DNA of 64,000 bases, from the NCBI GenBank assembly GCA_964533375.1, contig CAZHLW010000001.1, positions 144,063-208,062 on the forward strand, read 5' to 3'. The DNA is from an uncultured Candidatus Peribacteria bacterium. GTDB taxonomy: Bacteria; Patescibacteriota; Gracilibacteria; Peribacterales; Peribacteraceae. The translations under genes and the position numbers were made by a program. The notes beneath the pieces were generated by a model. The model saw only the letters and a program-made list of their open reading frames with translations. It did no database searches and was not told the origin of the DNA. Shown piece after piece: positions 47,451-64,000 of the stretch (its first letter is position 1; each line of letters opens with the position of its first letter).

Positions 47451-47527
47451 AATTTACTGGAAAAGACAACCTCGCTTTCGTATACTGCGCAGGCTCCCAC
47501 AAAGAAGAGCGGTTCTTTTCCCATCAC

Positions 47528-47602
47528 GGCCCCATCGTCTAACGGCTAGGACACAGGATTTTCATTCCTGCAATCGGAGTTCGATTCTCCGTGGGGCTGC
47601 CA
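47528..47602 (+). tRNA. tRNA-Glu (anticodon UUC), CCA encoded
   Basis: Folds as a cloverleaf by hand: acceptor GGCCCCA/TGGGGCT (G1-U72), anticodon stem CAGGA/TCCTG with loop TTTTCAT, T-arm CGGAG-TTCGATT-CTCCG, discriminator G + CCA. Confidence 0.88.
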
Positions 47603-49189
47603 TAGTGAAAAATCAACTTCGGAAAGGCTATGTTCTGGCTTAGGAATCACGAAGGATCGAAGTTCGATCCGCTCTGATTTCTGCTTCATCGCTTCCAAGC
47701 CTTCCTGGATCTTCAAGAACGGGAATCTGGCTTCACACTGCACTATTCCGTCTTTCATCGTCCAGTTCGAGCCAATAGCCATGAGGATAACCTTCTGTGT
47801 ATCCACGCTGCCTTTGTCGAAGCATTTCAAGGCGTTGCAAGAGAACTCAAATGTTTTGATAGTCCTATCAATCGCAGTGTCAGCATTCAGCTCGTTATCA
47901 TCGAGGAGCCTTTTGGCATGGTCTCTCTCTTTGGTCAGCGAGTTCTTTTGCACTTTGAATTCATCCTCGCTGATTACTGAGCGGTCTATGTTATCGACAG
48001 CCACATAGAGCTTCACAAGGTTTTGAATCGCCGCCATTGCATTGTCGTACTTGCGACGAAACTCTACCAATTGTTTCTTCTGCCCCTTTTTGTCCATCTC
48101 ATGCACCCGTTCCATCTTATCTTTCAGCCAAACTAACAACCTTTCGGAGATGGTAATCGCTTCGATGTACCTTCTAAGCTGAGGTGTCAGTTCGTCTTTA
48201 TTCAGCTGCACCGTCTGGGAACAAGGACCCTTCTTCTTTGTGCAGCGGTAGTAGAGATGCATTCGTACATTCCCGTTCTTGAGCTTCTTACGCTGTACGT
48301 CACAGGTGATCATCGAGCCGCATTCAGCACAGTGGATGAGACCCGTAAATGGAGAATTGTGCTTTCGATTATTCGGTCTTCCGTCCCTCCCAAGAATCAT
48401 CTGAGCTTTCTCGTATTCTGCATATGTGATCATTGCGGGGTGTGTCCCTTTATAAAACTCCTTCTTCCACCAGAAGAAGCCCGCACAAAATGGTGACGAA
48501 AAGATCTTATAAAGGCATCCAAGAGTCACAGGGCGCTCTGGGTACTTATCTGTGGCGCGGAGTGTCATTCCCCAATCATCACGCGCTATACGGTGTATCT
48601 GAGGGACCGAGTATGCGCCCGTGAGCAGAAGCCTCCAGGCTTTCTCCATGTTTTCATATCGAAGCTCATCACTCCCGATGTAGCACCTACCACGTTCACC
48701 TGCATTCACATTGCTGTAACCGAGGGATGCTTTTCCAGGGAACTGCCCGATCTTGCATTTCGTGGTCATGCCTCTTGTGACATCTACTCCCAATTTTTCC
48801 GATTGGTATTTAGATTGGGAGAGGGCAAAACTGAGCATCATTTTGCCCTCTGGCGAGTTGCTGAAAAAATAGGAGCCAAACTGCAAATCCTTCAGTACTT
48901 TTCGATCAAGTGCGTAGATCACTTCTGCTGCATCAATTGGATTACGACTTAAGCGGTCAGGATGCCAAACGATTATCCCATCAGCTTCACCCGCCTCTAT
49001 GCGCGTTAGCATGTCCTTGAACTTGGGGCGGTTGTAGGGCTTGAAGGCACTGCCGTCTTCCGTAATTTCCTCAACGATCTCTAGGTGCTGGAACTTCAAC
49101 AGAAGCTCTTGGCGCTGCGATTGGATCGAAAGCGCCTGTTTCTCTTCGTCGGTGCTTCTGCGGGCATACAGGAAGTATTTATAGGCCAT
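47546..49189 (-). CDS. Large serine recombinase (integrase)
   Basis: YARRSTDEEKQALSIQSQ catalytic Ser region, IIVWHPDRLSRN, recombinase domain, Zn-ribbon (CAECGSMITC...YYRCTKKKGPC) and a coiled-coil C-terminus. ATG at 49189. The last 19 codons lie antisense within the tRNA-Glu gene. Confidence 0.88.
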   Translation of the reverse strand: MAYKYFLYARRSTDEEKQALSIQSQRQELLLKFQHLEIVEEITEDGSAFKPYNRPKFKDMLTRIEAGEADGIIVWHPDRLSRNPIDAAEVIYALDRKVLKDLQFGSYFFSNSPEGKMMLSFALSQSKYQSEKLGVDVTRGMTTKCKIGQFPGKASLGYSNVNAGERGRCYIGSDELRYENMEKAWRLLLTGAYSVPQIHRIARDDWGMTLRATDKYPERPVTLGCLYKIFSSPFCAGFFWWKKEFYKGTHPAMITYAEYEKAQMILGRDGRPNNRKHNSPFTGLIHCAECGSMITCDVQRKKLKNGNVRMHLYYRCTKKKGPCSQTVQLNKDELTPQLRRYIEAITISERLLVWLKDKMERVHEMDKKGQKKQLVEFRRKYDNAMAAIQNLVKLYVAVDNIDRSVISEDEFKVQKNSLTKERDHAKRLLDDNELNADTAIDRTIKTFEFSCNALKCFDKGSVDTQKVILMAIGSNWTMKDGIVQCEARFPFLKIQEGLEAMKQKSERIELRSFVIPKPEHSLSEVDFSLWQPHGESNSDCRNENPVS

Positions 49190-49251
49190 AGGTTTGGGTG
49201 GATTGAGGGATGCCCATAAGTGTGGGCAGTATATAATTAGTTGGCTTAAAA

Positions 49252-49557
49252 TCAACTATCGTTCACGATGAAACAGAAGGTCCTTTGCGCTGGGTGTTCT
49301 GCCATATAGTCCCTAAAAAATTGAACCATTGGCAGCTGTTCTTTAGATCCAAACCACGGCTCACCCTCCAGCACATCCTCTAAGGAAGGAAGCTCTTCTT
49401 GCCCGATGATATAAACGCCACGTTCATGGCGTTCGAGGTTTAGAAAAGCTTCACCGATGCCGCTCTTTTCAAGAACTGAAATCGCGCAGTGAGGAATATG
49501 TAGGATCGATGATCCTATGGGATTACCCCAATTAACATTTGCAGGAAAGATTTTCAT
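49252..49557 (-). CDS. Small protein, paralog 1 of a 4-member tandem family
   Basis: MKIFPANVNWGN...EKSGIGEAFL...PWF...FFRDYMAEHPAQRTFCFIV. Start at 49557. Confidence 0.6.
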   Translation of the reverse strand: MKIFPANVNWGNPIGSSILHIPHCAISVLEKSGIGEAFLNLERHERGVYIIGQEELPSLEDVLEGEPWFGSKEQLPMVQFFRDYMAEHPAQRTFCFIVNDS

Positions 49558-49888
49558 GGGAGTTGGGGGTATCGGAAGTAAAAGCTGTAAAACAGAAGAA
49601 TTCTTGGTTGGGGTGACTCTCCATGTACCCCGTGATGGCTCGAAGAAGCAGTTGGTCATCAGTCGTGCCTTTCCATTCCTCGTCTTCTCCTCCGAGGATT
49701 GCGTGCATCGTTGCTAGGTCCGTTTGGTCATCAACCGTCAGGAAGCACATGAAATTGCATCTGGGCGATTCATAGACAGTTCCAATTCCACTCGCTTCGA
49801 GCCTTTTCAGTGCATCGAAAGTAAGGTGAGGAAGCGGGATGTTCCTGGCGCAACAATTCCAGTTGGGTTGAGCAGGTATAAGGTCCAT
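49532..49888 (-). CDS. Small protein, paralog 2
   Basis: MDLIPAQPNWNC...EASGIGTVYE...EEW...ITGYMESHPNQEFFCFTAF. Overlaps paralog 1 by 26 nt. Confidence 0.6.
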   Translation of the reverse strand: MDLIPAQPNWNCCARNIPLPHLTFDALKRLEASGIGTVYESPRCNFMCFLTVDDQTDLATMHAILGGEDEEWKGTTDDQLLLRAITGYMESHPNQEFFCFTAFTSDTPNSHENLSCKC

Positions 49889-49915
49889 AAAAAAAGAAGG
49901 GAAGAAAATAAGGGT

Positions 49916-50242
49916 TCAGAATTCGTCCGAAGCCAGGAAGCAGTAGTGACCGTCTGGGGTAGGATTTTTCTCGATGTATTCAAGAATGGTCCTCGCAAGT
50001 TTTTTTACCGCTGGAAGATGTTCTTTTGAGACATCGAACCAATGATCACTCTCAAGAGTTTTTAGTAGACCATCTAGGTAATGGCTATCGACGTAGAAAA
50101 ATCCCATGTTGTGGTCGCAAGGATTTAGGTAAACCTCACCACAGGCGTTTTGCGCCAGCTTTATAAGCAGACAGTGAGAATTTTCATCCTCGTACAACGT
50201 AGGGGTGAGGTCCCATTCAAGTTTGGCAGTGCGAAGGTTCAT
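49916..50242 (-). CDS. Small protein, paralog 3
   Basis: ...QNACGEVYLNP...HWFDVSKEHLPAVKKLARTILEYIEKNPTPDGHYCFLA. Confidence 0.6.
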   Translation of the reverse strand: MNLRTAKLEWDLTPTLYEDENSHCLLIKLAQNACGEVYLNPCDHNMGFFYVDSHYLDGLLKTLESDHWFDVSKEHLPAVKKLARTILEYIEKNPTPDGHYCFLASDEF

Positions 50243-50260
50243 AGGGGGTGGGGGAAAGAA

Positions 50261-50554
50261 TTAAGCGAAGAGCATGAACAGGTATTCCTCCTTCGGATGC
50301 GCCGAGGCGTATTCAATAATTTTCTCGATAGCGTTTTGCAAAGCGGGTTCTTCTTTCCAGTTTTTAAGCTCCTCAATTTCATACTTATCGAGCATGAGGA
50401 ATGCGATGGCGGGGTCCTCCTGTCCAATGTCATAGGTTCGGATAAACACCGAGCCAATGCCGCCTTGCGGAAGTCGGTCCATCAGCAGGACAGCATTTTC
50501 ATCCTCGTGCAGAGGATGTTTGTTACCTGATTCGAACGAAGCATGAATTTCCAT
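50261..50554 (-). CDS. Small protein, paralog 4
   Basis: ...PQGGIGSVFIRT...NWKEEPALQNAIEKIIEYASAHPKEEYLFMLFA. Confidence 0.6.
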   Translation of the reverse strand: MEIHASFESGNKHPLHEDENAVLLMDRLPQGGIGSVFIRTYDIGQEDPAIAFLMLDKYEIEELKNWKEEPALQNAIEKIIEYASAHPKEEYLFMLFA

Positions 50555-50604
50555 GTGAGTAGTTGGGAGAAAATGAAGCAGAGTTACACACCGTCAGATA
50601 TGCT

Positions 50605-52557
50605 TTATTCGGTGTTGGAATTAAGCGGTTCTGACCCTGTGTTCCATTTGAAGTGAGAGCGGCATTCTTCCGAGCTGAACCACATGAAGTCTTCCTGGAA
50701 TTGGATACCCTTTTCCGTGGTCAAATCGTCAGGGTCCCATTCCTCACAAATTCCGAGAATTTTCATGGTCTGCATTTCGTGGAGTGCCGTTGGCTTTGAA
50801 ACCTTCAAGACCTTCTCTACCTGTCCTGTAGTAATCTTCCCGCCACGATCAATAAGTGCGTGCAACAGCTCTGCTCGATGCCCAGGGGCAGAATCACAGG
50901 CGAGCAGTACCACGCAGGGCATGTCCTCATCCGTAATGTGTTCCCTCCCAAGAGCAACAGCGTGGCCTCTGGCGAGGTTATAGAGCAGCTGGTTGAGTCG
51001 GTCAGGTTTCTCAATGACGGGAGAGTGGTACACCAATTCTTCGCCCGTATCGTTGCGCTCTCTATCGGTGTTCAATGTCCCACGGAGCTTTGCCAGGAGG
51101 CTCGCACATCGTGCGATGATCATGAGATGGCTTGCCTGATCTTTGGATTTATCCCATGCGATGCCGTCACGGTGCTTTGCCCAGAGTGTTCGCAGCAGGT
51201 CGCCCGTTACTTTACGGCACACCATTTCTTTCTCCTTACAGGCATTGCCCTGCAATTGGCGCACAAGTTCCTCATTCGTCTTTGTCTTCATGTGCAGACC
51301 CAAGAAGAACAGGCGCGGTCCCTGGTTTCCCATGACCTTCCAAACGCGCCGTGGGATTGGCGTTGAGGCTGCAAGAAGCATGAAAAGATAGTCGCCTGTG
51401 CGGGTCCTTTGCCCGTGGACTCCTCCATCCGTTGCAAGCCCCTCCCCATCGAGTACGCGGGTAAGAATTCCCACGTTTGAGATAAGATCCTCCTCTCGCG
51501 CAGAAAACACCGTAGCGAGGTCGCGGATGCAGAACATGCGGTACTTCAGCCGAGGAAGCAGGTCCACCTTCTCCAGGTCTTCGCGCTTCACGTTTGCGGC
51601 ATTCGATACGAAGGATGCGGGACTAAATTTATCCGATGGATACATGAGTTCGGGAAGCCCAGACTCGGCAAAAAAGTTGATCGTGATTGTCTTCCCCGCC
51701 GCTGGCACGTCGATGAGAACGAGAGCGAAGGGATTGGTGATGTCCTTGATAAGCAGCTGTGCAACGGTGCTTAGGGCAATCTCGGAAGCAACAACGAGTT
51801 CCTGAAAATTCTCTCGAATGACATTCCTCCATTCGTTGATTTCCACAGGCTGCTTTGGAGCAGTTAGAAGTGCTACCCGTGGTCGGGTGTCGTTTACATC
51901 TTTATTTTTGTCACCCGCCTGTGGCACTTTTTTGGCGAGAGATAATAGCTCGATTTTGAAGTCTTTCGACTCTTTTTTGCAGTAGCGAGCAAAGTCCGTG
52001 ATGTCACCTCCATCGCCAAGTACTTCGGGTAATTCAATTCTGAAAAGCTCAATATCAGATCTCTTTTTTTCGAAAAGTCGTACTGTCTTATCTGCTCCCT
52101 TCTTGCCAGCTTCATCGAGGTCAAAACAAACAGTGACTTTAATTCCTTTTGGGAAGAGCTTGAGCCATTCTTCTTTGAAAGTTCCAGCGCCTCCCGTGGA
52201 GCAAATTGCTTCTATTCCATTACCGATAAGCACGAGTGCATCTGGTTCGCCTTCACAGAGAATAATGTCCGTTGCATCGCCCAAGTAAGGGAGTGGATAC
52301 AGTGTGGCGGGACTACCCTTGGGTTGTACCAGATATTTGGGCTGAGTCTCTTTGCCGTTTGTCGGCCTCTTCAGTTTATAAAAAAGCGTTTTGCCCTCTG
52401 CATCAAGGATGGGGATCACAACCCATTTGTTCTGCGCGTGGATAGTCCATGCGATGCCCTGGCTCTCCAGGATGTCCTTGGACACGCATCGTTCCTCAAG
52501 CCAGTACTTGAGTTCGCCAGAGGGCAACGGCTGCAACTTGAGGGGTTTCTGGGTCAT
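50605..52557 (-). CDS. Toprim-domain primase fused to a P-loop (deviant Walker A) helicase-like domain
   Basis: Toprim: IILCEGEPDALVL ... CFDLDEAGKKGA ... GGDITDF. P-loop-like: LIDVPAAGKTIT. The start at 52557 forms an ATGA overlap with the upstream ORF's stop. Confidence 0.75.
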   Translation of the reverse strand: MTQKPLKLQPLPSGELKYWLEERCVSKDILESQGIAWTIHAQNKWVVIPILDAEGKTLFYKLKRPTNGKETQPKYLVQPKGSPATLYPLPYLGDATDIILCEGEPDALVLIGNGIEAICSTGGAGTFKEEWLKLFPKGIKVTVCFDLDEAGKKGADKTVRLFEKKRSDIELFRIELPEVLGDGGDITDFARYCKKESKDFKIELLSLAKKVPQAGDKNKDVNDTRPRVALLTAPKQPVEINEWRNVIRENFQELVVASEIALSTVAQLLIKDITNPFALVLIDVPAAGKTITINFFAESGLPELMYPSDKFSPASFVSNAANVKREDLEKVDLLPRLKYRMFCIRDLATVFSAREEDLISNVGILTRVLDGEGLATDGGVHGQRTRTGDYLFMLLAASTPIPRRVWKVMGNQGPRLFFLGLHMKTKTNEELVRQLQGNACKEKEMVCRKVTGDLLRTLWAKHRDGIAWDKSKDQASHLMIIARCASLLAKLRGTLNTDRERNDTGEELVYHSPVIEKPDRLNQLLYNLARGHAVALGREHITDEDMPCVVLLACDSAPGHRAELLHALIDRGGKITTGQVEKVLKVSKPTALHEMQTMKILGICEEWDPDDLTTEKGIQFQEDFMWFSSEECRSHFKWNTGSEPLNSNTE

Positions 52558-52973
52558 AGGAAGCAGGTGGAAAGAAATTCGGCTGCCTCCTTCAAAGAGC
52601 ATTCGTGGATATGCATCACAAGATCGAGAGTGGAGCCTTGTGACACTCCACCCTTTTCTTTGCCTGAAAACCTCTTCCATGTATTCGTCTTTTCAAACAA
52701 TGTAAGAGACGTTATTTCACCTTCATCGCGCATTGCATACGTACCAGCCCCTGTCTTTATTGCTTCAACGCCGAGTTGATGTGCAACTTCAAGGATTGGG
52801 ATTTGCCGTAGAGCGTCGAAGTCTTTATGCATAGAGATAAGGTGAGTGGAGAGGCGAGAATGAAGAGTGAGCTTTGCGTTCCATACGGATGCGAGTTTGA
52901 TAAGGCTTGAGATAAACCGATTTTCTGCGGTTAAATCTTGAGTTGTGGCTGATGTAAAAGTAGGATTCATCAT
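52554..52973 (-). CDS. Primase N-terminal module: CHC2 zinc-finger-like domain without the Cys/His ligands
   Basis: IPILEVAHQLGVEAIKTGAGTYAMRDEGEITSLTLFEKTNTWKRFSGKEKGGVSQGSTLDLVMHI follows the zf-CHC2 pattern, but the metal ligand positions are A/M/D/R/F. Confidence 0.55.
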   Translation of the reverse strand: MMNPTFTSATTQDLTAENRFISSLIKLASVWNAKLTLHSRLSTHLISMHKDFDALRQIPILEVAHQLGVEAIKTGAGTYAMRDEGEITSLTLFEKTNTWKRFSGKEKGGVSQGSTLDLVMHIHECSLKEAAEFLSTCFL

Positions 52974-53046
52974 AGAAATAAGGGAAAAGAGCTAGTCTTC
53001 TTGCAAGGAGGGCGGCTATTTTCCTGTTATGGAGGTCGGAGGATTG

Positions 53047-53190
53047 TCATGGTTGTGGCTGGGAAAGAAGATAAGCAAAATGAACCAGTGACTCTGCTTC
53101 GCGCTTAGCCTGTTCGGGTGTCAGTTCGACTCCATAATCCTCACGGATTATTTGTGCGAACTCGGCCAAATCTGACTCCGTAAGGGTCAT
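53047..53190 (-). CDS. 47-aa hypothetical protein (below the ORF-track cutoff)
   Basis: MTLTESDLAEFAQIIREDYGVELTPEQAKREAESLVHFAYLLSQPQP. Its ATG overlaps the stop of the DUF5659 gene (ATGA). Confidence 0.45.
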   Translation of the reverse strand: MTLTESDLAEFAQIIREDYGVELTPEQAKREAESLVHFAYLLSQPQP

Positions 53191-53426
53191 GAGTGAAAGT
53201 CGTAAAGAATATGTTTTGCTCGTTTAAGTGATGTCAGCAGTGACTGTGCAGGACACAGCAAAGAATCGGTCCAGTAGGCGCGAAGGATCTTTTGAAGATC
53301 GTCACTGTCCTCAAATACGAAGATCACTTTGCCGCTAGGATCGGAACGATCTAACGTGCGTAGTTTGCACTGCTTATGCAGTAAAACTGCAATAGTGGGG
53401 AGGTCGTGTGTTCTGTAATCCTGCAT
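53187..53426 (-). CDS. DUF5659-like small protein
   Basis: MQDYRTHDLPTIAVLLHKQCKLRTLDRSDPSGKVIFVFEDSDDLQKILRAYWTDSL matches my recollection of the DUF5659 pattern common in phage and CPR elements. Confidence 0.6.
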   Translation of the reverse strand: MQDYRTHDLPTIAVLLHKQCKLRTLDRSDPSGKVIFVFEDSDDLQKILRAYWTDSLLCPAQSLLTSLKRAKHILYDFHS

Positions 53427-53461
53427 GATGTCGCCACCATGCATCCCTCAAATTTTGAGGG

Positions 53462-55210
53462 CTAATCTAAGTCTTTGAGGGACAAAGTTGTTTCATCCAC
53501 CTCAAACCATACCGTAACTTCTTTTCGTTTTAAGCCTGCCACTTGTGCGAGTTTCCTCTGCAAGTTTTCAATAGCTTTGTTGAAGTCAAACCCTCTCACT
53601 TCATCCTCTCGTTCCAGTACTTCTGCTAAATACTTTTTGATTGAATCTTTTTGGAGTACTTCACCTTTCTTTTCGAGCAAAAGCTTCCACAGATATTGAA
53701 TCGCAGAATCTTGATTGAACCTTGTTGATAAGTTTTTATCACTCTCATTCCAAATAACTTTGAGATCAAAATCTGTCACAAGATTCAAATACCGAATCAC
53801 ATTACTTTTAGGTATTTGAAACTCTTCAGCATCCTCTAATACATTAGGAAGTTGCCTTCTTGGTGTAGATTTTTGCACTAACTTCATTCCTGGAAACATC
53901 TCGTGATGAGGTCTTATTATATAACGCAATAAGGTAATCATTGGGTTTATTGGTTTATGAGGGATCGCCTCTTCATCCATTGGAATAATCTCGGAGGGGT
54001 ATTCCATTTCCACACTTATTTGTTTTTCTTTATTTAGCGCAAATAAAATTCCATGAAGTTCCGTTTTAGAGAGATTCGGTACGCCACTGAGAAATACGCT
54101 GGGTTCGATATATGTCGTTAAATCTTCCTCAGCGCTGAGATCCAACTGATCTACGGCAATCTTGAGGATTGCAGCCTTCTTGTCGCTTATCGATAAATAC
54201 CCATTAGGGGTATTTTCAAGGGGAGCAGGTATTAACTGATTATATTGTTTTAGTGGTCGTATTCGGATTTGCAGAAGTTCAGAACCGTCTACTCTCCGCA
54301 TTCCTCCCGCCATTAATTCACCGTCTTCATCTAATGCCAAGATTGTTTCTGCTGGCTTCATTCCTTCTGGGAATAGAGGGTGGATGAAGTCTTTATCAGA
54401 AAGCCAAAAACCTCGTTTGAAATGCTCCTGTTTTTTGCTCAATATGCCGTACATGGCCTCTTTTTGCTGCGCCCAGTTCAATACATTTTCCTCCCATTTA
54501 ATGTCATGCCATCGAAAAGACTGAAGGTAATCATGCAGTTCCTTTTTCGCCAATTTATGCACTCCAACTGCCTGTGTGAAAAACTCGACAATCACAGGCG
54601 ATGAACTAATAAAATCCGTGCTCTTGCTGGTCCATTGGTCTTTATGAGGGTTGTCCTCCAGGTTCAGGCGATGCTCACGAGTGATCACTTCTTGGCGCGC
54701 CAAAGCCAAGTGAAACGCGAGGTCAAATGCCTGATGCATTGGAACTATGACCGATCTCTCTGCCTTTACCTCTTCCCACAGCGCCACAGGTTTTTTCTTC
54801 ACATATTCTTTCTCTCCGAGTGATTCTCCAACGCTTACCATTGAATGAAAAGACCCAAAAGCATTCGTTCGCTCATACTCATAAATCTCTACGGGGCTAA
54901 CTGCAATCTCCACTTCCATCAAAGCGGTCTCAACCTTATGAAACATTCTAAGGATGTCTATCATTGGTGGTAGCTTCAAATCGTTGTACTTCACAAACTG
55001 CGCCCGCCCCCACAGAAGGTCGTTCAGGTGATCCTGCATTGCCCCTGAGAATTTGCGCTGACTTTCATCTAATTCAGTCCGTGGAACACTTTTTGCCCCT
55101 TCTGTGTAAAACGCTAATTGATACAGCGCAATTAGCGTGTTCGGATTGATCGGTGGTGAAGGTTCATCGTAGATGTCATCTGCGTAAACCTCATCTTTAT
55201 CAATACTCAT
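53462..55210 (-). CDS. 582-aa hypothetical protein with OmpR/PhoB-like winged-helix C-terminus
   Basis: First gene of the element's minus-strand block. The C-terminal 90 aa (AIQYLWKLLLEKKGEVLQKDSIKKYL...FNKAIENLQRKLAQVAGLKRKEVTVWFEVDETTLSL) resembles a trans_reg_C wHTH. The rest is unrecognised. Confidence 0.65.
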   Translation of the reverse strand: MSIDKDEVYADDIYDEPSPPINPNTLIALYQLAFYTEGAKSVPRTELDESQRKFSGAMQDHLNDLLWGRAQFVKYNDLKLPPMIDILRMFHKVETALMEVEIAVSPVEIYEYERTNAFGSFHSMVSVGESLGEKEYVKKKPVALWEEVKAERSVIVPMHQAFDLAFHLALARQEVITREHRLNLEDNPHKDQWTSKSTDFISSSPVIVEFFTQAVGVHKLAKKELHDYLQSFRWHDIKWEENVLNWAQQKEAMYGILSKKQEHFKRGFWLSDKDFIHPLFPEGMKPAETILALDEDGELMAGGMRRVDGSELLQIRIRPLKQYNQLIPAPLENTPNGYLSISDKKAAILKIAVDQLDLSAEEDLTTYIEPSVFLSGVPNLSKTELHGILFALNKEKQISVEMEYPSEIIPMDEEAIPHKPINPMITLLRYIIRPHHEMFPGMKLVQKSTPRRQLPNVLEDAEEFQIPKSNVIRYLNLVTDFDLKVIWNESDKNLSTRFNQDSAIQYLWKLLLEKKGEVLQKDSIKKYLAEVLEREDEVRGFDFNKAIENLQRKLAQVAGLKRKEVTVWFEVDETTLSLKDLD

Positions 55211-55384
55211 ATTGAAACAATTTTAGCGTGTTTTACAGGTCTTGAAACCTGTGTTCTCGTTTATGTCACCTAATGCGCCTACTGCGTAATAAAGATCCTC
55301 TCGAAAACATACCCTCCATCGCAGACACATCATGCAGTTGCCCATCTTCAATAGCATTAAACGTTTCACGTTGCGGGATAACCA

Positions 55385-56218
55385 TCATCCTGCAGCTGTA
55401 CGTAAATCGTTTCTTGCATCCCGAATGATCGACCATGAAGCATGGAGGAACAGCGACGCAATGACAGATGCAGCAATTAGGTCAGGCCACGGCGTTCCCG
55501 TCCATGCAACAAGCCCCGCTGCGATCACGACCACAAGATTGCCAATAGCATCGTTGCGGCTGAAGAGCCACACAGCACGGACATTCGCATCGCCTGCGCG
55601 GTGGGGCATGAGCACGACTGCCGCGACAATGTTGATGACCAGTGCGATAGCACCGAGAATGCCCATCAATTCGCTTTCGGGAGTTTGCAGTACGAAGAAA
55701 CGATAGATGGTGTTGAGAAGCACACCTGCTCCTAAGAGAGCAAGGAAGATGCCTTGAATGAGTGCGGAACGCGCCCGCCATCGAAGACCCCAGCCGATGG
55801 CGAGAAGGCCGAGGAACGTGATCGACCCGTCCCCAAGGAAATCGAGGGCATCTGCCTTGAGCGCTTGGGAACCCGCAATGAACCCGCCGACCATTTCTCC
55901 AACGCCATAGCAAGCATTAAGCAGGATCACGATCCACAGTGCTCGGCGGTAGGCAGGAGTGACATGCGTGAGATCTTTTGGGAGTTCGTCATCGTCTTTT
56001 CCTTCTTGCATCCGCGCGAGGTTGTAGCCGATGCCTTTGACGGCACTCTCCACCGCAGCAAGGGCAGCAACATCGTTCATGCGGAGCGTCATCACCTGCG
56101 AAGCAATGGAGACTTTCACATCCTGCACCTCTGCCACTTTTCTAGTTGCTGCTTCGATTTTGGCAGCACAGGAGGGACAATCCATCCCTGTAACGCGATA
56201 GCGGACCTGTTGTGTCAT
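55385..56218 (-). CDS. HMA domain fused to a six-TM cation diffusion facilitator core (no cytoplasmic C-terminal domain)
   Basis: MTQQVRYRVTGMDCPSCAAKIE (HMA), then CDF TM2/TM5-like sites (ALKADALDFLGD; LFSRNDAIGN). Ends shortly after TM6. Confidence 0.75.
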   Translation of the reverse strand: MTQQVRYRVTGMDCPSCAAKIEAATRKVAEVQDVKVSIASQVMTLRMNDVAALAAVESAVKGIGYNLARMQEGKDDDELPKDLTHVTPAYRRALWIVILLNACYGVGEMVGGFIAGSQALKADALDFLGDGSITFLGLLAIGWGLRWRARSALIQGIFLALLGAGVLLNTIYRFFVLQTPESELMGILGAIALVINIVAAVVLMPHRAGDANVRAVWLFSRNDAIGNLVVVIAAGLVAWTGTPWPDLIAASVIASLFLHASWSIIRDARNDLRTAAG

Positions 56219-56220
56219 AT

Positions 56221-56538
56221 TTAGTAGTGGGTACACATATAAATCTCCTTTGAGTGCTTCTTCAGAATTTTCCTCGCATATTTAAGAATCTCGGAAACCT
56301 CTTTGGATGAGACTTCGTAGAAGACCTCTCTGCCTCGCTTCTCCTTGCGGATGAGACCGCATTCAAGGAGACAAGCAAGATGAGCCGAGGTATTGGGCTG
56401 TGAGAGTTTCGTTTCTTCGACGATCTGTGAGACGGTTTTCTCTCCGTCTGCAATGGTTTCAAGAATCATCAAACGTGAGTGGTCGCCAAGACCCTTGAAC
56501 AGTTTCGCTTCGAGTTGCAGTTCAGTGAGTTGAGGCAT
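56221..56538 (-). CDS. ArsR/SmtB family metalloregulator
   Basis: LFKGLGDHSRLMILETIADGEKTVSQIVEETKLSQPNTSAHLACLLECGLI. Confidence 0.85.
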   Translation of the reverse strand: MPQLTELQLEAKLFKGLGDHSRLMILETIADGEKTVSQIVEETKLSQPNTSAHLACLLECGLIRKEKRGREVFYEVSSKEVSEILKYARKILKKHSKEIYMCTHY

Positions 56539-56548
56539 AGATTGGACG

Positions 56549-56569
56549 TATAATTATGTATTTATACAT
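56549..56569. promoter_or_regulatory. TATAAT box plus 14-nt palindrome ATGTATTTATACAT (candidate ArsR operator)
   Basis: TATAAT at 56549-56554. A perfect 6-2-6 inverted repeat at 56556-56569, in the 45-nt divergent spacer between arsR and the PaaK-like gene. Confidence 0.4.
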
Positions 56570-56583
56570 TATCCCATCTCTGC

Positions 56584-57987
56584 ATGACTCGCAACACCGA
56601 AACACAACCTGCTAAGAAGAGAGTCGGTATTGGATTCGTGGGTTTCCTCAAGCTCGTAGGAAAGATTCGGGCACTGAAGCGGCGCGAGAAGTGGACGCGG
56701 GAGCAGATCAAGCAGTATCAGCAGCAGGAACTGCAAAAGCTGCGTGAATTCGCGTATGCCAGTTCTCCTTTCTACAAAAAATTCCATAAAGGATTGGAAG
56801 GCTGTCCGCTTACTGAGCTTCCAGTGCTCACGAAGCAGGAACTCATGCAATCATGGGATGAGATCGTCACGGATCGCTCCCTGCGGCTCAAAGATGTCGA
56901 GCAGTTCTTGGAGAACATGACCGAGTTCCAACCATACAGTTCTGGCCACTATGCCTTCGCTACGGGTGGCACTACAGGTGTCAAAGGAGTGTTCCTGTTT
57001 AACCAAGATGAATTCCTAACAATGTTCGCGCTGACAGCCCGTGCATCTGGCTGGATGGGCATTCATCTGAGTTTGCGCGAACGGCCACGCATGGCTGTTG
57101 TGCAGTCGCGCCTCCCGTGGCATCTCGCAGGAGCCGCACACTCTCTCAAAGTCCCGTTCATCCGCACGCTCGTTTTGGATTCAGTAGAGCCGATGCCGCA
57201 GCTTGTTTCTCAACTTAATGCCTTCCAGCCCCATGTGTTCGGTGGGTACGCGGGTAATGTACATCTGCTTGCCGAAGAGCAGATTGCAGGACGGTTACGT
57301 ATTGCCCCAAAAACGATCCTGACAACCGCAGAAACCCTCAAAAAAGAAGCGAGGAAGGCTATTAAGAAGGCATGGGGCATTGAGCCATTTGAAGCGTATG
57401 GGGCAACAGAGACAGCGGAAGTCGCATCCGAATGTCAGGAGCACAAAGGGCTACATATCTACGATGACATGGTTATCCTCGAAGTGGTTGATCGTGACAA
57501 TAAGCCTGTGCCAGCAGGAACCTACGGGAGCAAGTTACTTGTAACCGTTCTCTGGCGGCGTTCCATGCCACTCATCCGCTATGAAATAAGCGATCACATC
57601 AAACTTGCCTCCAAGCCTTGCCCCTGCGGTAGGCCTTTCCCTCTCATTGAAGAAGTTCAGGGGCGAGAGGAACAAGTGATTCATCTGACAGGGAAAGACG
57701 GCGGAGAAATCGCTATCGATCCAGAGTTCTTCTTTGACGAAATGGTTCTCCTGCCCATCGACGGATGGCAGATAGTACAAGAGAACAAAGATACTCTCAC
57801 TTGCTTCATCCTTCGTCCTCATTCGACATTCAATGAATCGGAATTCGTGAAGCGCATTACGGGAGAATTGGAGACGCAGGGAGCGAAGACACCGACGGTG
57901 AAAGTCGAGCGCATCGACGAGCTACGGCGCACGAAAGTAGGAAAAGTGATTACGATACAGGCATTGCCGAGGAAACCTACCTCTTAG
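56584..57987 (+). CDS. Phenylacetate-CoA ligase / F390 synthetase-like adenylate-forming enzyme
   Basis: FATGGTTGVKG, EAYGATETAEV, and a C-terminal ...RRTKVGKVITI. Confidence 0.75.
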   Translation: MTRNTETQPAKKRVGIGFVGFLKLVGKIRALKRREKWTREQIKQYQQQELQKLREFAYASSPFYKKFHKGLEGCPLTELPVLTKQELMQSWDEIVTDRSLRLKDVEQFLENMTEFQPYSSGHYAFATGGTTGVKGVFLFNQDEFLTMFALTARASGWMGIHLSLRERPRMAVVQSRLPWHLAGAAHSLKVPFIRTLVLDSVEPMPQLVSQLNAFQPHVFGGYAGNVHLLAEEQIAGRLRIAPKTILTTAETLKKEARKAIKKAWGIEPFEAYGATETAEVASECQEHKGLHIYDDMVILEVVDRDNKPVPAGTYGSKLLVTVLWRRSMPLIRYEISDHIKLASKPCPCGRPFPLIEEVQGREEQVIHLTGKDGGEIAIDPEFFFDEMVLLPIDGWQIVQENKDTLTCFILRPHSTFNESEFVKRITGELETQGAKTPTVKVERIDELRRTKVGKVITIQALPRKPTS

Positions 57988-58876
57988 CTTTGCAGAAGCG
58001 CTGCAGTGTCTGTTCAGAGTACACAGGCTGGATCGTTGCATGTTGGATACCAAATTGCTTGTGGCATATCTCCTCGACCATCGAAATGATTCGCTCGCAA
58101 TCGCACACCTCATCAATCGTGACCGTGACTTTGCAGGTCAGATGATGTTCCTTCGTATTCTGGCTCCAGACGTGAATATCTCCGACTGATGAAACACCTT
58201 TTACTGCCTTTACTTCTTTTTCAAAATCGTCGTAATTAAATCCTTCTGGTGCAGATTGTAGGAAGTATCCCATTCCCTCGACGAAAATACCCCATCCAGT
58301 TTTTATCATGAAGAAAGTGATAAGGAACGCAACGGCTACATCGACGTAAATAGTGGTGATGAACAGAGAAAGAATACCGCTTGCGACTACAGCCGCCGAA
58401 CCAACAGCATCATAGATCATGCAGGCATAGGTGCCTTTGGCATTCAAACTGCAACAGGCATCCTCTTTAAGCCAGAGAGCCGATACGAGATTTACTACAA
58501 GAGCAATGGAGCCAAAGACGATCACTAATTCACCTGCAATCTCCTGTGGCTCTAAGAGCAATCTGATAGCTTGGAAGAAAGCGATAAATGCCGTAACCAG
58601 GAGCAGGCAGCCCTTTACGAACCCCGCAAATGCATCCATGCGAGCGTAACCAAATGTCCTTCGTGCATCAGGTGCCTGCTTTGTCTTTCGTTCACTGTAG
58701 ATACTAAGAATCAGCGCCCCTGCATCATCTAAATTCATTAAGGCATCTGCTAATAAAGCACTGCTGCCCGTTATGATACTTCCGATGGTTTCTACAATGG
58801 CGAGACCGCCATTGAGCACTAATGCGCGAGTGAAGCGCTTTTCCAGTGATGCCGATGCATGAGGATGTTTTGTCAT
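57977..58876 (-). CDS. Cation diffusion facilitator family transporter (with C-terminal domain)
   Basis: SSALLADALMNLDDAG, MIYDAVGS, and a C-terminal DIHVWSQNTKEHHLTCKV region. Confidence 0.85.
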   Translation of the reverse strand: MTKHPHASASLEKRFTRALVLNGGLAIVETIGSIITGSSALLADALMNLDDAGALILSIYSERKTKQAPDARRTFGYARMDAFAGFVKGCLLLVTAFIAFFQAIRLLLEPQEIAGELVIVFGSIALVVNLVSALWLKEDACCSLNAKGTYACMIYDAVGSAAVVASGILSLFITTIYVDVAVAFLITFFMIKTGWGIFVEGMGYFLQSAPEGFNYDDFEKEVKAVKGVSSVGDIHVWSQNTKEHHLTCKVTVTIDEVCDCERIISMVEEICHKQFGIQHATIQPVYSEQTLQRFCKAKR

Positions 58877-58913
58877 TGTAGAGACAAGTTATTGAGTATA
58901 ACCCCAGGGAAAC

Positions 58914-61748
58914 TTATGGAGCGACACACGGAACAGTCGGATCAGACACACAATTCTCCTTAGGCGGTGTGCCACGCTCAGGGCAGGTCAGCGAGTATCG
59001 ACAGGCATCATCAGAAAGCTTTCTGAGTTGCTGCTTATACTCGGTATCACTCGCGCCGTATGTCAGAAGAATCTGATCCAAGTCTTGAAAGACATACACA
59101 GGATTCAGAGGCATTTCCTGTTCATTCACGAACATCCTCCAGCGTTTCTTGCCATCATTGCAGTATTCCTCGCCTGTATCGAGCGTAAAGCAATCTGCAG
59201 CCAAAAAGATCTTCAATGAAGAAAAGAAATCTCCGATGGTAATCCCTGGCTTGTGGCGGTGCATCACGTTCCCATTGCCATCATGGACGTGGGTATAGGG
59301 ATGCTTTGGATTCGTATCGGTGGACATGTACTTCTCCTGTGAGAAATCGACTCTGCTCCCATCGATGAAAACAGCGAAATCTGCATGTGTATGATTCGGG
59401 TCAGGGTTTACAGCTGGACCTGCGGAACTGATCTTTGCAAAGCCAAAGAAGAGCGCCGTAAAGCCAACGGCCATCACATACGGCGCGATGTCCGAGAGCC
59501 AGTTTCTGCGCTGTGGATGGAAACCCTTAAGGAGAAGTGAGTTTGTGACAACAGACACTGAACTGAAGGCCATAGCGAGCCCTGCAAGTTCAGGACGAAG
59601 TACGATGCCGAAGTCCATAAACAGTCGTGCTGCAATAGGAATACCGATGACGTTGTAGAACAACGCAAAGAACATATTTTGCTTGATCTTGCTCACTGTC
59701 GCTCGGCTCAGCTTAATTGCCGTCACAACATCTCTGAGATCGTTCTTCACAAGCACAATGCCACCTGTCTCCATGGCAATATCGGTGCCGCTGCCCATAG
59801 CTATCCCTAGGTTCGCTTGTGCAAGCGCAGGACTATCATTGATGCCATCACCGACCATCGCCACTCTCTTGCCCTGTTCCTGTAGCTTCTTCACTTCACT
59901 GGCTTTCTCGGCAGGGAGTACTTCAGCAAGGACATTCTTGATGCCAAGACTCACTGCAATCGCCTGAGCTGTGCGCTTGTTATCACCTGTGATCATGTAG
60001 ACCTCAATTCCCATCCTCTGAAGCTGTTCTACAGCCTCCTTGGAGGTTTCTTTGACGGTATCCGCAACGGCAATGATGCCAAGAACCTTGCTTGTATCCG
60101 CAAGCAGCATGGCGGTCTTCCCTTCATTCTCTAATTTCTGAAGTTTCGATTCGGCATCTCCAATTACAATCTTTTCCCGTTCCATGAGTTTGCGGTTTCC
60201 GAGGAAATACTTTTCTCCGTTGATCGTCCCTTCCACTCCATGTCCTGCTATTGCACAGAATCTATCTACTGCGACAAGAGAAATGGGCATCTCGGTTGCT
60301 CGCTTCACAATACTTTCAGCAAGTGGATGCTCTGAACCCTGCTCCAAGCTGGCTGCGATCTGCAGGATTTCCTTCTCTGATCCTTGAAACGCAAGAATAT
60401 CGGTCACTTCAGGTTTTCCCTTTGTGAGCGTTCCCGTCTTATCGAACACAATGACATTGATCTTGTTCGCAGCTTCCAAGGGTTCTCCTCCACGAATGAG
60501 AATGCCCTGTTCCGCACCTTTGCCCGTAGCGACCATGATGCTTGTGGGTGTCGCAAGTCCAAGGGCGCAGGGACAGGCAATAACAAGAACCGAGACGGCA
60601 GCAAGGAGTGCAAATGTGACGGAAGTGCCTGCCAAGAGCCAACCAATAAGCGTAATAATGGCTATGCCAATGACTGCGGGAACAAACCACGAAGATACCC
60701 AATCGGCAAAGTTTTGAATGGGTGCCTTGGAACCCTGTGCATCCTCCACAAAGCGAATTATGCGAGCGAGAGCAGTTTCCGAGCCAATCTTTTCGGCACG
60801 GAACTCTATACTGCCGTTTTTATTCATCGTTGCCCCAAACACACGATCACCCTCTTTTTTCTCTGTAGGGATACTTTCACCTGTGAGCATGGATTCATCG
60901 ACAGATGAGAGTCCCTTTATCACTACGCCATCCACAGGGATCTTCTCTCCTGGGCGCACAACCACTATATCGCCCACTTGGACATCCTCAATCGGTACAT
61001 CCACTGCTTGCCCGTTACGGAGCACTCGTGCAGTCTTCGCCTGAAGTCCCATGAGTTTCTGAATAGCGGAGGATGTTCTTCCTTTCGCTCGTGCCTCCAT
61101 CCATTTTCCGAGCAGGACAAACGTGATCAGTAAAGCAGCAACCTCGAAGTACAGATCATGCATTTCGCCAATCACCGTTCCATACGTCAGAACGTGATTA
61201 ACGAGGTTATAGAGGCTGAAGAGGTAAGCAGTAAGCGTTCCAATAGCGATGAGGCTGTCCATGCTAAAGCTGAACATACGAGCGCTTGACCAGAATCCTC
61301 TGAAAAAGCCTGCTCCCAGCCAGAACTGCACAGGAGTAGCAAGAATGAGTGACACAATTCCCATATACGGCATGAGTTGCCAATGCAGTGGTGACTCTGG
61401 GAAGAAGGACAGCACCATGAAGCCGAGCATCGGCAGGCTGAGAACTAGTCCGATGAGGAATTTTCTACGATAATCTGCGATTTCCTTTTCCTGACGCTTC
61501 CGATCAATATCAACACCATGATGACTATGCGGGTCATGCACTTCAGCGCCGTAGCCTGCAGCTTTTACTGCATCGATAAGCCCCTTCTCATTCACAAGCT
61601 CAGAATTGAAGCGAATACGGGCTTTATTGGCTCCATAGTTCACATTTGCTTCCTCAACGCCTGCAGTCTTTTTAAGTTTGCGGGTGATGAGTGCGCTGCA
61701 GCTGGCGCAGTGCATGCCTGTAATAGAGAGAGTGCATTGTGAAGTCAT
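58914..61748 (-). CDS. copA: Cu(I)-type P1B ATPase with extra C-terminal TM helix and ~165-aa His/Cys-rich extracytoplasmic domain
   Basis: [17 protein letters not shown] ([11 protein letters not shown]), [22 protein letters not shown]. After the last core helix come [20 protein letters not shown] and a further domain. Confidence 0.9.
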
Positions 61749-61960
61749 GCGAGAGGGTGAACTTTGTACTTCTCATCCAATCCTTCAATTTCCTGCTTCC
61801 ATTTTTCCATATCAAAACTTTCGTTATGGTCGAGGGTCACTTTCTTCGTATCAATATCAACCTCTGCGCTTTTGATAGCAGAAAATTCGCTGCTTACATC
61901 TTTGATGAGAGCTGCACAGGAAGCGCAGTGGATGCCAGGAATAGAGACACTGGTTTGCAT
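61745..61960 (-). CDS. copZ: CopZ-like HMA copper chaperone
   Basis: [21 protein letters not shown]. Its stop overlaps the copA start (ATGA). Confidence 0.8.
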
Positions 61961-61979
61961 AGGCTGGAAGGGAAAATAA

Positions 61980-62249
61980 TTAACGTTTAGAGAGGCCAAC
62001 AACTTTGATGACTTCATCAATAAATGCTTCCTTATCTGCAGGTGATGCGAGCTTCTTTGCGGCACATGTATGTAAATGGCTTTCGAGCACAGCTGCTTGG
62101 ATATGCTTCAAATGCCCCTGCATGGCGAGCGCAAGTTCAAGGATTTCCGTGCAGTAGGCATCATCCTCAACATCTTTCCGCAGTTTAACAGTCAGTCCTT
62201 CCAGCCTGTTGATCGCGGCTAATGTCTTTTTCTTGGCATCTTCTCTCAT
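61980..62249 (-). CDS. csoR: CsoR/RcnR family metal-sensing repressor
   Basis: LEGLTVKLRKDVEDDAYCTEILELALAMQGHLKHIQAAVLESHLHTC, carrying the C...H...C ligand pattern. Confidence 0.88.
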   Translation of the reverse strand: MREDAKKKTLAAINRLEGLTVKLRKDVEDDAYCTEILELALAMQGHLKHIQAAVLESHLHTCAAKKLASPADKEAFIDEVIKVVGLSKR

Positions 62250-62257
62250 ATTATGAA

Positions 62258-62297
62258 GGGGTAGGGGGTAGGGGTACTTTATCCCCGTACCCCCTTA
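62258..62297. promoter_or_regulatory. G/C-tract palindrome upstream of csoR (candidate CsoR operator, or another micro-repeat hairpin)
   Basis: GGGGTA GGGGGTA GGGGTA CTTTAT CCCCGTA CCCCCTTA, 9 nt upstream of the csoR start codon. Confidence 0.45.
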
Positions 62298-62314
62298 CTT
62301 GGCAAGACTTCATT

Positions 62315-62923
62315 TTATAGACGCATCGCAGACCCACTTGCAGCTGCCTGAATCGCTGCACCAATCGCTTCAATGGTGCTCTCCACTCGCTGTCCATTGA
62401 CGAAGAACGTAGGAGTCCCATTCACGCCAAGCTGTTCGCCTTCCTGTTGCGAGGCTTCCACGATAGCCATCTTGATATTGGACTTCCTGCATCTCTCGAA
62501 GAGATCCATATCAAGACCAAGATCTGTTGCCCACTTGGAAATCGCCGTGGGACTCAAGTCGTCCTGATTTTCGTAATCCATCTCCTCAAATTCCCAGAAC
62601 TTCCCCTGATCAGCAGCGCACTCAGCGGCTTCTGCTGCTTCTTTGGAATAGCGGTGATTCGGATAGATTGGGAAATGCTTCACCTCATAACGAATCTGTT
62701 GGCCGTACTGCTCTAGCATCGGCTTTATAACTCTTGTCTGTGCTGCACGGCATGCCTCGCACTGTAAGTCGATGAACTCTGTCACCGTTACGGCAGAATT
62801 GGCATTGCTTCTGGGATGTGGAGGACGATTGGATTCCGTGGCAATTCCTGTCGTATCGACACTGCATGCGGTGAGCAACAGAAGCGATCCGATTACCGAT
62901 GGAAGGAAATAACGTCTATGCAT
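62315..62923 (-). CDS. DsbA-like thioredoxin-fold lipoprotein
   Basis: Lipobox LLLTAC, CEAC redox motif, GTPTFFVNG. Confidence 0.8.
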   Translation of the reverse strand: MHRRYFLPSVIGSLLLLTACSVDTTGIATESNRPPHPRSNANSAVTVTEFIDLQCEACRAAQTRVIKPMLEQYGQQIRYEVKHFPIYPNHRYSKEAAEAAECAADQGKFWEFEEMDYENQDDLSPTAISKWATDLGLDMDLFERCRKSNIKMAIVEASQQEGEQLGVNGTPTFFVNGQRVESTIEAIGAAIQAAASGSAMRL

Positions 62924-62941
62924 GGAAATGGTTGGAAAAAA

Positions 62942-63718
62942 TTACGGAAGCATGGGATCGATTGCCTGTTTGAAATTGGCGAAGGGAACCGCGCCGCTAA
63001 TCTGCGCTGTCTTCCCATCGGGTCCAAGCACCCAGAAACCAGGAGTGCCGTTCACGCCTGATGCTGAGCCATCAGCCATGTCCTTCGCTACTTCATCCTT
63101 GTATTTACTACTATCGAGACATGTATTGAACGTACCCGTGTTCAATTTTAGATCAGCCGCATACTGCTTAAGCGTAGGCACAATGTCCGTTGAATTACTC
63201 CACGTTGCCTGTGTTTCGAAGATTTTGTCATGCATTTCCCAGAACTTTCCCTGATCATCTGCACACTCAGTTGCTTCGGCTGTCTTCTGTGCGTGTGGAT
63301 GGAAACTCAAAGGGAAATCCCTCACTACATACTTCACTTTGCCAGTATCGATGTACTCTTTTTTGATCTGGCCGTAGGCATCTGTGTAATGCCTGCTACA
63401 GAAGGGGCATTGGTAATCCGTGAACTCAACGAGTGTCACAGGCGCATCCTTGTCACCTAGAGTTGGATCGTCACCGACGGTAGGAGGCGTAGCGGGTGGC
63501 TGGGGAGCAGCTTCAGGAGCAGAGGGAGTAGGTACTTGCGCGACTTGTTGAGGGCTTGGATTTCCTGCTGCCAGGGTGAAACGTCCTGCATTGAAGGAAC
63601 CCAGTCCAAATCCTACAATGATACCAATAAGACCCATGGAAACCGCGAACCATGGGTTGCTTCCAGCTGCGGATGGTGCAGCGTTTTTGTGAGCGGAGTC
63701 TTGCCAATTGAGAGCCAT
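62942..63718 (-). CDS. Membrane-anchored DsbA-like thiol:disulfide oxidoreductase
   Basis: TM anchor, Pro/Ala-rich linker, FTDYQCPFCSRH, GTPGFWVLG. Confidence 0.8.
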   Translation of the reverse strand: MALNWQDSAHKNAAPSAAGSNPWFAVSMGLIGIIVGFGLGSFNAGRFTLAAGNPSPQQVAQVPTPSAPEAAPQPPATPPTVGDDPTLGDKDAPVTLVEFTDYQCPFCSRHYTDAYGQIKKEYIDTGKVKYVVRDFPLSFHPHAQKTAEATECADDQGKFWEMHDKIFETQATWSNSTDIVPTLKQYAADLKLNTGTFNTCLDSSKYKDEVAKDMADGSASGVNGTPGFWVLGPDGKTAQISGAVPFANFKQAIDPMLP

Positions 63719-63744
63719 AATGGAAAAGAAAAAGAATAAGAAGA

Positions 63745-64000
63745 TTAAATAACGTTAAATGAACCGCGTACCATGCCCATTGAGCACATGAATGCCAACT
63801 GGCCTTTCGCAGGAGGGGTAAATTCAATGATATTCTCACCGCTTCGCAGGGCTTGAGAGATATTCAGAGAAGGAATTGTCATAATGCTTGTGCAACCTGC
63901 TGCACCTGTTCCATCCACTTTCCAGCGGACAGGAACACCCGCTTTGATTGTGAGGTTCTGTGGCTCGTAGCCATTACGAGTTACTTTCATCGCAATCTCC
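63745..64000 (-). CDS. Cupredoxin-like metal-binding domain protein (partial; continues past the window end)
   Basis: KVTRNGYEPQNLTIKAGVPVRWKV...GCTS...FMCSMGMVRGSFNVI. The frame stays open upstream of the internal Met at 63990. Confidence 0.6.
   Translation of the reverse strand, partial: EIAMKVTRNGYEPQNLTIKAGVPVRWKVDGTGAAGCTSIMTIPSLNISQALRSGENIIEFTPPAKGQLAFMCSMGMVRGSFNVI

Follow-up and report, generated by a model that had tools for sequence, protein, structure and literature searches.

The window analyzed here, a 64,000-nucleotide stretch of a contig from an uncultured Candidatus Peribacteria bacterium of groundwater, carries at positions 49252–50554 an array of four small open reading frames (ORFs), designated paralogs A to D, within a tRNA-Glu-associated integrative element. 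A reading made from the sequence alone (the sequence-only reading) had described four consecutive small ORFs in the slot between a primase and an integrase, tightly spaced and with one 26-nt overlap. The coordinates bear this description out: all four ORFs are present, co-directional and on the minus strand, with a DnaG-type primase gene on one side and a large serine recombinase gene on the other. Paralog A (49252–49557) is a protein of 101 amino acids (aa) with an isoelectric point (pI) of 4.9, and its start is an internal ATG, the one that all orthologues use (P0005, P0006, P0011, P0013, P0015, P0018 and P0019). Paralog B (49532–49888; 118 aa, pI 4.5) contains seven cysteines and ends in a C-terminal NLSCKC tail, paralog C (49916–50242) has 108 aa and a pI of 4.9, and paralog D (50261–50554; 97 aa, pI 4.6) has no cysteine; each belongs to the subfamily of the same letter. 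The overlap lies between A and B, gaps of 27 and 18 nt separate B from C and C from D, respectively, and in the direction of reading D is preceded, across a gap of 50 nt, by the primase gene in one co-directional block.

The four proteins share the motif (S/G)GIG.(V/A)(F/Y), which takes the form ACGEVY in C, together with a mid Trp and a C-terminal Y..(H/N)P...F(C/L)F; the N-terminal Trp that had also been proposed as a common feature is absent from D. Smith-Waterman local alignments compared with 1000 shuffles gave z-scores of 18.3 for A-B, 18.6 for A-C, 10.7 for C-D, 7.0 for B-C, 5.5 for B-D and 2.9 for A-D. The E-values in BLASTP were 2e-11 (A-C), 5e-10 (A-B) and 2e-6 (C-D), and A and D are connected transitively only, through C and B. 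When a four-member profile was run against the 1.33-Mb genome, just these four loci were retrieved, at E-values of 1e-31 to 1e-49. Because the shuffle z-scores and BLASTP E-values lie far above chance, the four ORFs are confirmed, at the level of sequence comparison, as true homologous paralogs, and the mutual similarity on which the proposed array depended stands.

A tree of 61 members separated into subfamilies A to E, with a few deep singletons besides. Mean identity was 56–73% within subfamilies and 17–28% between them, and each of the four copies has its own orthologues at 55–97% identity. Within subfamilies, 22–45 of 101 columns reached a conservation of 90% or more, often with charged residues; subfamily D was the best conserved (45 of 101 columns). 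Synonymous divergence (dS) is saturated between paralogs, which makes their ratio of nonsynonymous to synonymous divergence (dN/dS, ω) meaningless, and orthologue pairs with unsaturated dS were used instead. In such pairs ω was 0.03–0.19 for the paralogs, 0.05–0.06 for the primase and 0.04–0.08 for the recombinase. Because the conserved subfamilies are separate and orthologue ω is this low, the duplications are ancient, with each copy held by purifying selection. The array had been characterized as fast-diverging and diversifying, and this characterization finds no support: the subfamilies are old, and the ω values lie in the same range as those of the primase and the recombinase.

A word-indexed search of 5.8 billion clusters retrieved 32 family proteins, and an exhaustive hidden Markov model (HMM) search of 1.84 billion representatives gave 17 matches at E ≤ 1e-3, of which three were artefacts, leaving about 14. 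P0036, P0041 and P0045, considered as long members, turned out to be tandem-repeat proteins that match one short stretch repeatedly, and they were discarded as spurious. All true matches from the HMM search are about 100 aa long, and no domain fusions or extra domains were found among them. In the GTDB family of the host, 12 of 200 species-representative genomes contain the family, always in one array. It was found in none of the five congeners, and in none of 337 genomes from 39 other families of the class; the hosts of the related loci are named as Candidatus Peribacteria/Peregrinibacteria.

The surroundings were readable at about 20 loci, and every one of these is an element, in agreement with the earlier proposal that the family is carried by mobile elements; copy number ranges from 1 to 4 between elements. 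These are primase-plus-integrase elements, in which a DUF5659 gene and a small ORF are usually followed by a Toprim primase, then by the slot for small genes and finally by a large serine recombinase. Two weak, distant members deviate from this layout. The first (L051) has a Type III restriction-modification system plus Shedu on one side and a serine recombinase of 24% identity on the other, with no primase nearby, and the second (L052) lies upstream of a PrimPol gene in an element with a tyrosine integrase. Around the L051 member, at L051:3376–11903, are genes for a DNA methylase and a Type III restriction enzyme, a gene resembling Shedu SduA, and the gene of the serine recombinase, which has 537 aa; this element carries defence cargo.

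No array contained two members of the same subfamily. The order D-C-B-A is found in the window and in two further genomes (G166 and G170), D-E-B-x-A in G109, and E-B-x-A in G101, G115 and G107, where x is an unrelated small ORF; one distant element has an E-y-(D-like) array, in which y is again an unrelated small ORF, and single-copy elements occur too. In all seven arrays having both subfamilies A and B, A is the final family gene before the recombinase, and the position of subfamily C is taken by subfamily E in related elements. The same slot also accommodates a second small-protein family of 84–127 aa with the pattern ...(R/K)VF...hhMG(I/F)E.G... and no library match, whose members lie at L092:7725–7982, L093:7725–7979, L067:3301–3594, L045:9842–10174, L043:629–1012 and L092:7402–7713. 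Considered as a distant relative of the paralogs, this second family proved unrelated (hhalign probability 0.4%). In two elements, the B and A genes are separated by a 145-aa ORF that matches no family (L008:8342–8779, which equals L042 9661–10098, and L044:2505–2993), and a small resolvase-like gene lies in the slot of two elements. The slot before the G193 recombinase, which belongs to the same clade (55% identity), holds a second-family member only, an unrelated 97-aa ORF; in G199, nothing lies between a helicase-like gene and the recombinase (52%). Because C and E are swapped and unrelated small ORFs are inserted in other elements, the slot between primase and recombinase appears to be a cassette site.

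The composition of the arrays also bears on whether the four proteins are obligate subunits of one hetero-oligomer. Each array has one member per subfamily, close elements keep the genes in a fixed order, and the tight or overlapping spacing suggests co-translation, all of which such a complex would account for. However, arrays of one, three or four members with differing subfamily sets do not amount to a fixed stoichiometric set, and we regard an obligate complex as quite improbable.

Divergence from the related elements differs among the genes of the array and its neighbors. Relative to G166 (L046), dS was 0.00–0.07 for B, C and D, 0.14 for the recombinase and 0.37–0.40 for A and the primase. 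Because dS forms such a mosaic across 49252–52557, the comparison implies that recombination occurred recently inside the array. Relative to G109, D is 90% and the primase 92% identical, compared with 60% for A and 51% for the recombinase; the elements are mosaics.

In these mosaics, A tracks the recombinase and not the primase, which raises the question of whether any of the paralogs, A in particular, could be a recombination directionality factor (RDF) that switches the large serine recombinase from integration to excision. Large serine integrases require an RDF for excision, and the known RDFs are diverse, have no common fold and work by protein-protein contact (PMC12286644). Like the RDFs phiC31 gp3, Bxb1 gp47, TP901-1 Orf7 and SPbeta SprB, the paralogs are encoded by the element and linked to a large serine recombinase; at almost every locus a family member lies directly upstream of the recombinase gene, and this extends to single-copy elements whose recombinases are 24–53% identical to the one in the window. 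Yet RDFs are single genes, and a single RDF would not need four to five conserved subfamilies, whereas the elements considered here have as many as four paralogs, drawn from five or more subfamilies. Moreover, the same-clade recombinases of G193 and G199 (52–55% identity) occur without the family, the distant L052 member belongs to a tyrosine-integrase element, and the covariation of A with the recombinase is equally expected from simple linkage. We therefore consider it unlikely that the paralogs include the RDF of the element; an RDF is recognized by its binding to the DBD2/coiled-coil of the integrase and its stimulation of attL × attR recombination (PMC12286644).

At the other end of the array, D tracks the primase, whose gene stands immediately before the array in the same block, with no terminator-like site found between the primase and D in a scan of the minus strand. 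The distant L052 member likewise adjoins a PrimPol gene. These observations would fit replication accessories or regulators, such as partners of a primase-helicase, loaders or regulators of copy number; phage P4 Cnr, which acts on the alpha protein, provides a model for the last of these. On the other hand, the number of copies and the set of subfamilies vary while the primase stays conserved, the helicase-like and recombinase genes of G199 have nothing between them, and the distant L051 member has no primase nearby. A role in replication seems an unlikely account of the family.

Neither Pfam, PHROGs, NCBIfam and PADLOC nor PDB sequence profiles gave a family match for paralogs A–D, with no PHROGs match at E ≤ 0.1. 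Pfam at E-values up to 10 yielded nothing for A, B and D, and for C just DUF5845 at E 0.049, below the cut-off; 39 members scanned singly against Pfam gave no recurrent match. The family, which the sequence-only reading had failed to recognize, is thus without a match to any known family in these libraries. All its members are acidic: pI is 4.2–4.9 in 12 of the 14 members checked, compared with a median of 6.45 for the proteins of the window, 12% of which lie below 5, and net charge is −7 to −11 in A–D and −2 to −13 family-wide. Acidity as a family trait argues against DNA binding. Conservation across subfamilies is confined to Gly, Trp, Phe, Leu and Pro-type positions, and no polar or catalytic residue is invariant.

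A further observation concerns subfamilies A, C and E, in which Cys and His residues occupy matching positions, namely HC in helix 1, C.C or C.H in the β2-β3 loop, and C..C in the last strand. This pattern, compared between 49252–50242 of the window (A and C) and the E members P0038, P0044 and L093:7394–7705, suggests a possible metal site.

AlphaFold2 modeled paralog A from the family alignment with a predicted local distance difference test score (pLDDT) of 92.4 and a predicted template-modeling score (pTM) of 0.85, and paralog D, from a different query and alignment, with a pLDDT of 92.9 and a pTM of 0.84. The alignments used for prediction were shallow (30–39 sequences; effective number of sequences about 3.5), and the two independent queries agree: both models have the element order β, short β, α, β, β, α, α, β. 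This order resembles the ferredoxin-like β-α-β-β-α-β with a split second helix; no such protein was retrieved, and no fold was assigned. Foldseek searches of the PDB with both models returned nothing at E ≤ 1e-3, with template-modeling (TM) scores of at most 0.39, and a search of BFVD with model A gave a best E-value of 0.05 and TM scores of at most 0.48. By a new fold we mean one for which Foldseek finds no neighbor in the PDB or BFVD. The PP2C phosphatases and kinases that ranked highest in the PDB searches, at TM ≤ 0.39, were taken as noise. Barstar, an idea suggested by the order of secondary-structure elements, was rejected, with an hhalign probability of 0.3%, no match to Pfam Barstar and no place in the Foldseek list.

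The sequence-only reading had likened the array to immunity proteins of polymorphic toxins, and arrays of the SUKH/Imm type do share its general form, consisting of tandem small α+β paralogs of low mutual identity on a mobile element. In work by Zhang et al. dated 2011/2012, immunity arrays are said to be made up of tandem small diverged paralogs. The likeness does not extend further. No toxin or toxin-cassette gene is present in the element or in the roughly 20 related loci, no SMI1_KNR4, SUKH or Imm family of Pfam matched even at E-values up to 10, and Foldseek retrieved no solved SUKH structure from the PDB. Unlike polymorphic cassettes, the subfamilies are conserved and orthologous. An immunity function is so improbable on these grounds that we set this part of the earlier reading aside.

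The explanation that we tentatively favor, as plausible if somewhat short of probable, is that the family consists of non-enzymatic protein-binding accessory factors, used on host defence or core machinery or on helper proteins. The paralogs would act by binding proteins, and their partners would be found among host or helper proteins. This agrees with the earlier proposal of a protein-binding or inhibitor family insofar as the proteins look like non-enzymatic binders, being acidic, devoid of an invariant polar residue and outside known families; the word diversifying in that proposal is to be dropped. Because the hydrophobic/Gly/Pro core is shared and charged conservation is found within subfamilies only, a common scaffold may display subfamily-specific surfaces. 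Each subfamily would then be adapted to a conserved partner of its own, and the paralogs would be deployed by the element against or upon host defence, the machinery of the host or helper-element proteins.

An anti-defence role is possible for such factors. Like anti-CRISPR loci and anti-restriction cassettes of the ArdA/Ocr type, the paralogs are small, acidic, non-DNA-binding in appearance and restricted to mobile elements, where they occupy a variable slot in variable copy number. Unlike known anti-defence proteins, they have no sequence or fold match in PHROGs, BFVD, the PDB or PADLOC and are under strong purifying selection, and their net charge is milder than that of classical DNA mimics. 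The element as a whole resembles satellites similar to phage-inducible chromosomal islands (PICIs) and the tycheposons of Prochlorococcus in being a small tRNA-associated element with an integrase, a primase/helicase and, beyond the replication genes, an accessory module. This is the place of the helper-interference genes in PICI-type satellites, and tycheposons are reportedly small tRNA-targeting integrative replicons that have a primase and an integrase and lack structural genes. In contrast to both, the present element has a host from the candidate phyla radiation (CPR), and its integrase is a large serine recombinase encoded antisense to the tRNA at the 3' end; its accessory proteins are non-homologous to theirs, and it has no known helper.

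Several results weigh against protein-binding accessory factors aimed at host or helper proteins. Similarity to known anti-defence, immunity or regulator proteins was sought by HMM and by fold, and none was found. Strong purifying selection and deep, stable subfamilies are unlike the arms-race signature that is frequent in anti-defence genes. The paralog genes stand at the integrase-proximal end of a long co-directional block and not in a recognizable early or leading region, and their tight linkage to the recombinase and the primase suits a directionality factor or a replication accessory equally well. A bolder version of the accessory-factor reading is possible but more doubtful: that elements of one CPR lineage carry an undescribed fold in at least five stable subfamilies, each of which neutralizes or commandeers a different host or helper protein. 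If true, the family would represent a new class of factors by which mobile elements counter defence or take over their hosts or helpers, in bacteria about whose conflicts between element and host almost nothing is known.

The mobile elements of CPR/Patescibacteria have hardly been characterized, and their hosts have tiny genomes and are not growable alone. The present analysis adds a delimited, recurrent integrative element, an accessory slot with turnover of small genes, and a confidently foldable protein family without sequence or structural relatives. Were the paralogs inhibitors, or cofactors of the integrase or primase, those toolkits would gain a new fold; genome engineering uses large serine integrases, together with their directionality factors, as tools. 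Otherwise the family still offers structure determination a compact target. With about 1300 proteins, the host proteome is within reach of an exhaustive in silico search for partners.

The conserved core of the integrative element spans 7.76 kb (47527–55286), as delimited by blastn against G166 and G101. With the near-identical element of G166, which belongs to another genus, the alignment is unbroken over 47527–55286 (88% over 7778 nt), and the alignment with G101 stops at the identical base, 55286. Synteny with the element-less congeners G003 and G005 ends at 47602/47603, the 3' end of a tRNA-Glu(UUC) gene identified by ARAGORN at the integration end (47528–47602, plus strand); in the other three congeners the left flank was matched in part only. 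Because of these alignment ends and the break of synteny at the tRNA, the 7.76-kb block is the conserved core of a tRNA-Glu-associated integrative element. Neither a displaced tRNA fragment nor a direct repeat was found when the right end of the element was searched; in an empty-site test, the right flank (55150–57000) had no counterpart in the five congeners. The promoter/terminator scan found nothing above chance.

From 55210 down to 47546, all genes of the core run in the same direction on the minus strand, in the order 582-aa protein, DUF5659 protein, 139-aa ORF, primase, D, C, B, A and recombinase. The 582-aa protein that heads the block (53462–55210) has no Pfam, PHROG, NCBIfam, PADLOC or PDB match, and its orthologues in related elements are 33–72% identical. 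It is followed by an 85-aa DUF5659 protein (53187–53444; Pfam E 2.5e-8), which is present in all related elements. The 139-aa ORF (52554–52973) resembles the N-terminal part of DnaG-like primases (PADLOC RTasDnaG-like, profile positions 38–124, E 4e-9) and is kept upstream of the primase in all related elements; in related loci a 47-aa ORF was called between it and the DUF5659 gene. The primase (50605–52557) is a DnaG-type Toprim protein of 650 aa with a long C-terminal domain (Toprim_2 3e-9, PHROG DNA primase 1e-17, PDB DnaG 4e-4); it starts in an ATGA overlap with the 139-aa ORF, and its orthologues also have 650 aa. This split DnaG-type primase makes up the replication module, the recombinase the integration module, and the paralogs occupy the accessory slot between the two. 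The large serine recombinase (47546–49189) has 547 aa when read from the ATG of its orthologues, which are also 547 aa long, and matches Pfam Resolvase (3e-20), Zn_ribbon_recom (5e-7) and the phrog_95 integrase (7e-58).

The last 19 codons of the recombinase gene are antisense to the tRNA-Glu gene. This C-terminus (…WQPHGESN…, 47546–47602) recurs as the terminal peptide of the G115 and G193 recombinases. At 47654–47670, 52 nt deeper inside the recombinase gene, there is a T-arm-like hairpin, GGATCGAAGTTCGATCC.

Beyond the core, positions 58907–64000, which the sequence-only reading had taken as a CopA/metal-efflux region, are 92% identical to G166 despite the difference in genus, whereas the housekeeping flanks are merely 71–78% identical even among congeners. 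The 3.5 kb that separate the block from the core (55287–58906) are non-homologous to G166. The mobile island may be larger than the 7.7-kb core and extend beyond the end of the window, and it may carry metal-resistance cargo. In G170, the far side of the element is flanked by a diversity-generating retroelement (bAvd and RVT_1) and a DUF3800 gene (L005:577–1984). Large serine recombinases as such are widespread, being present in 119 of the 200 genomes of the host family with up to eight per genome; the element type described here is confined to a recombinase clade of at least 52% identity.

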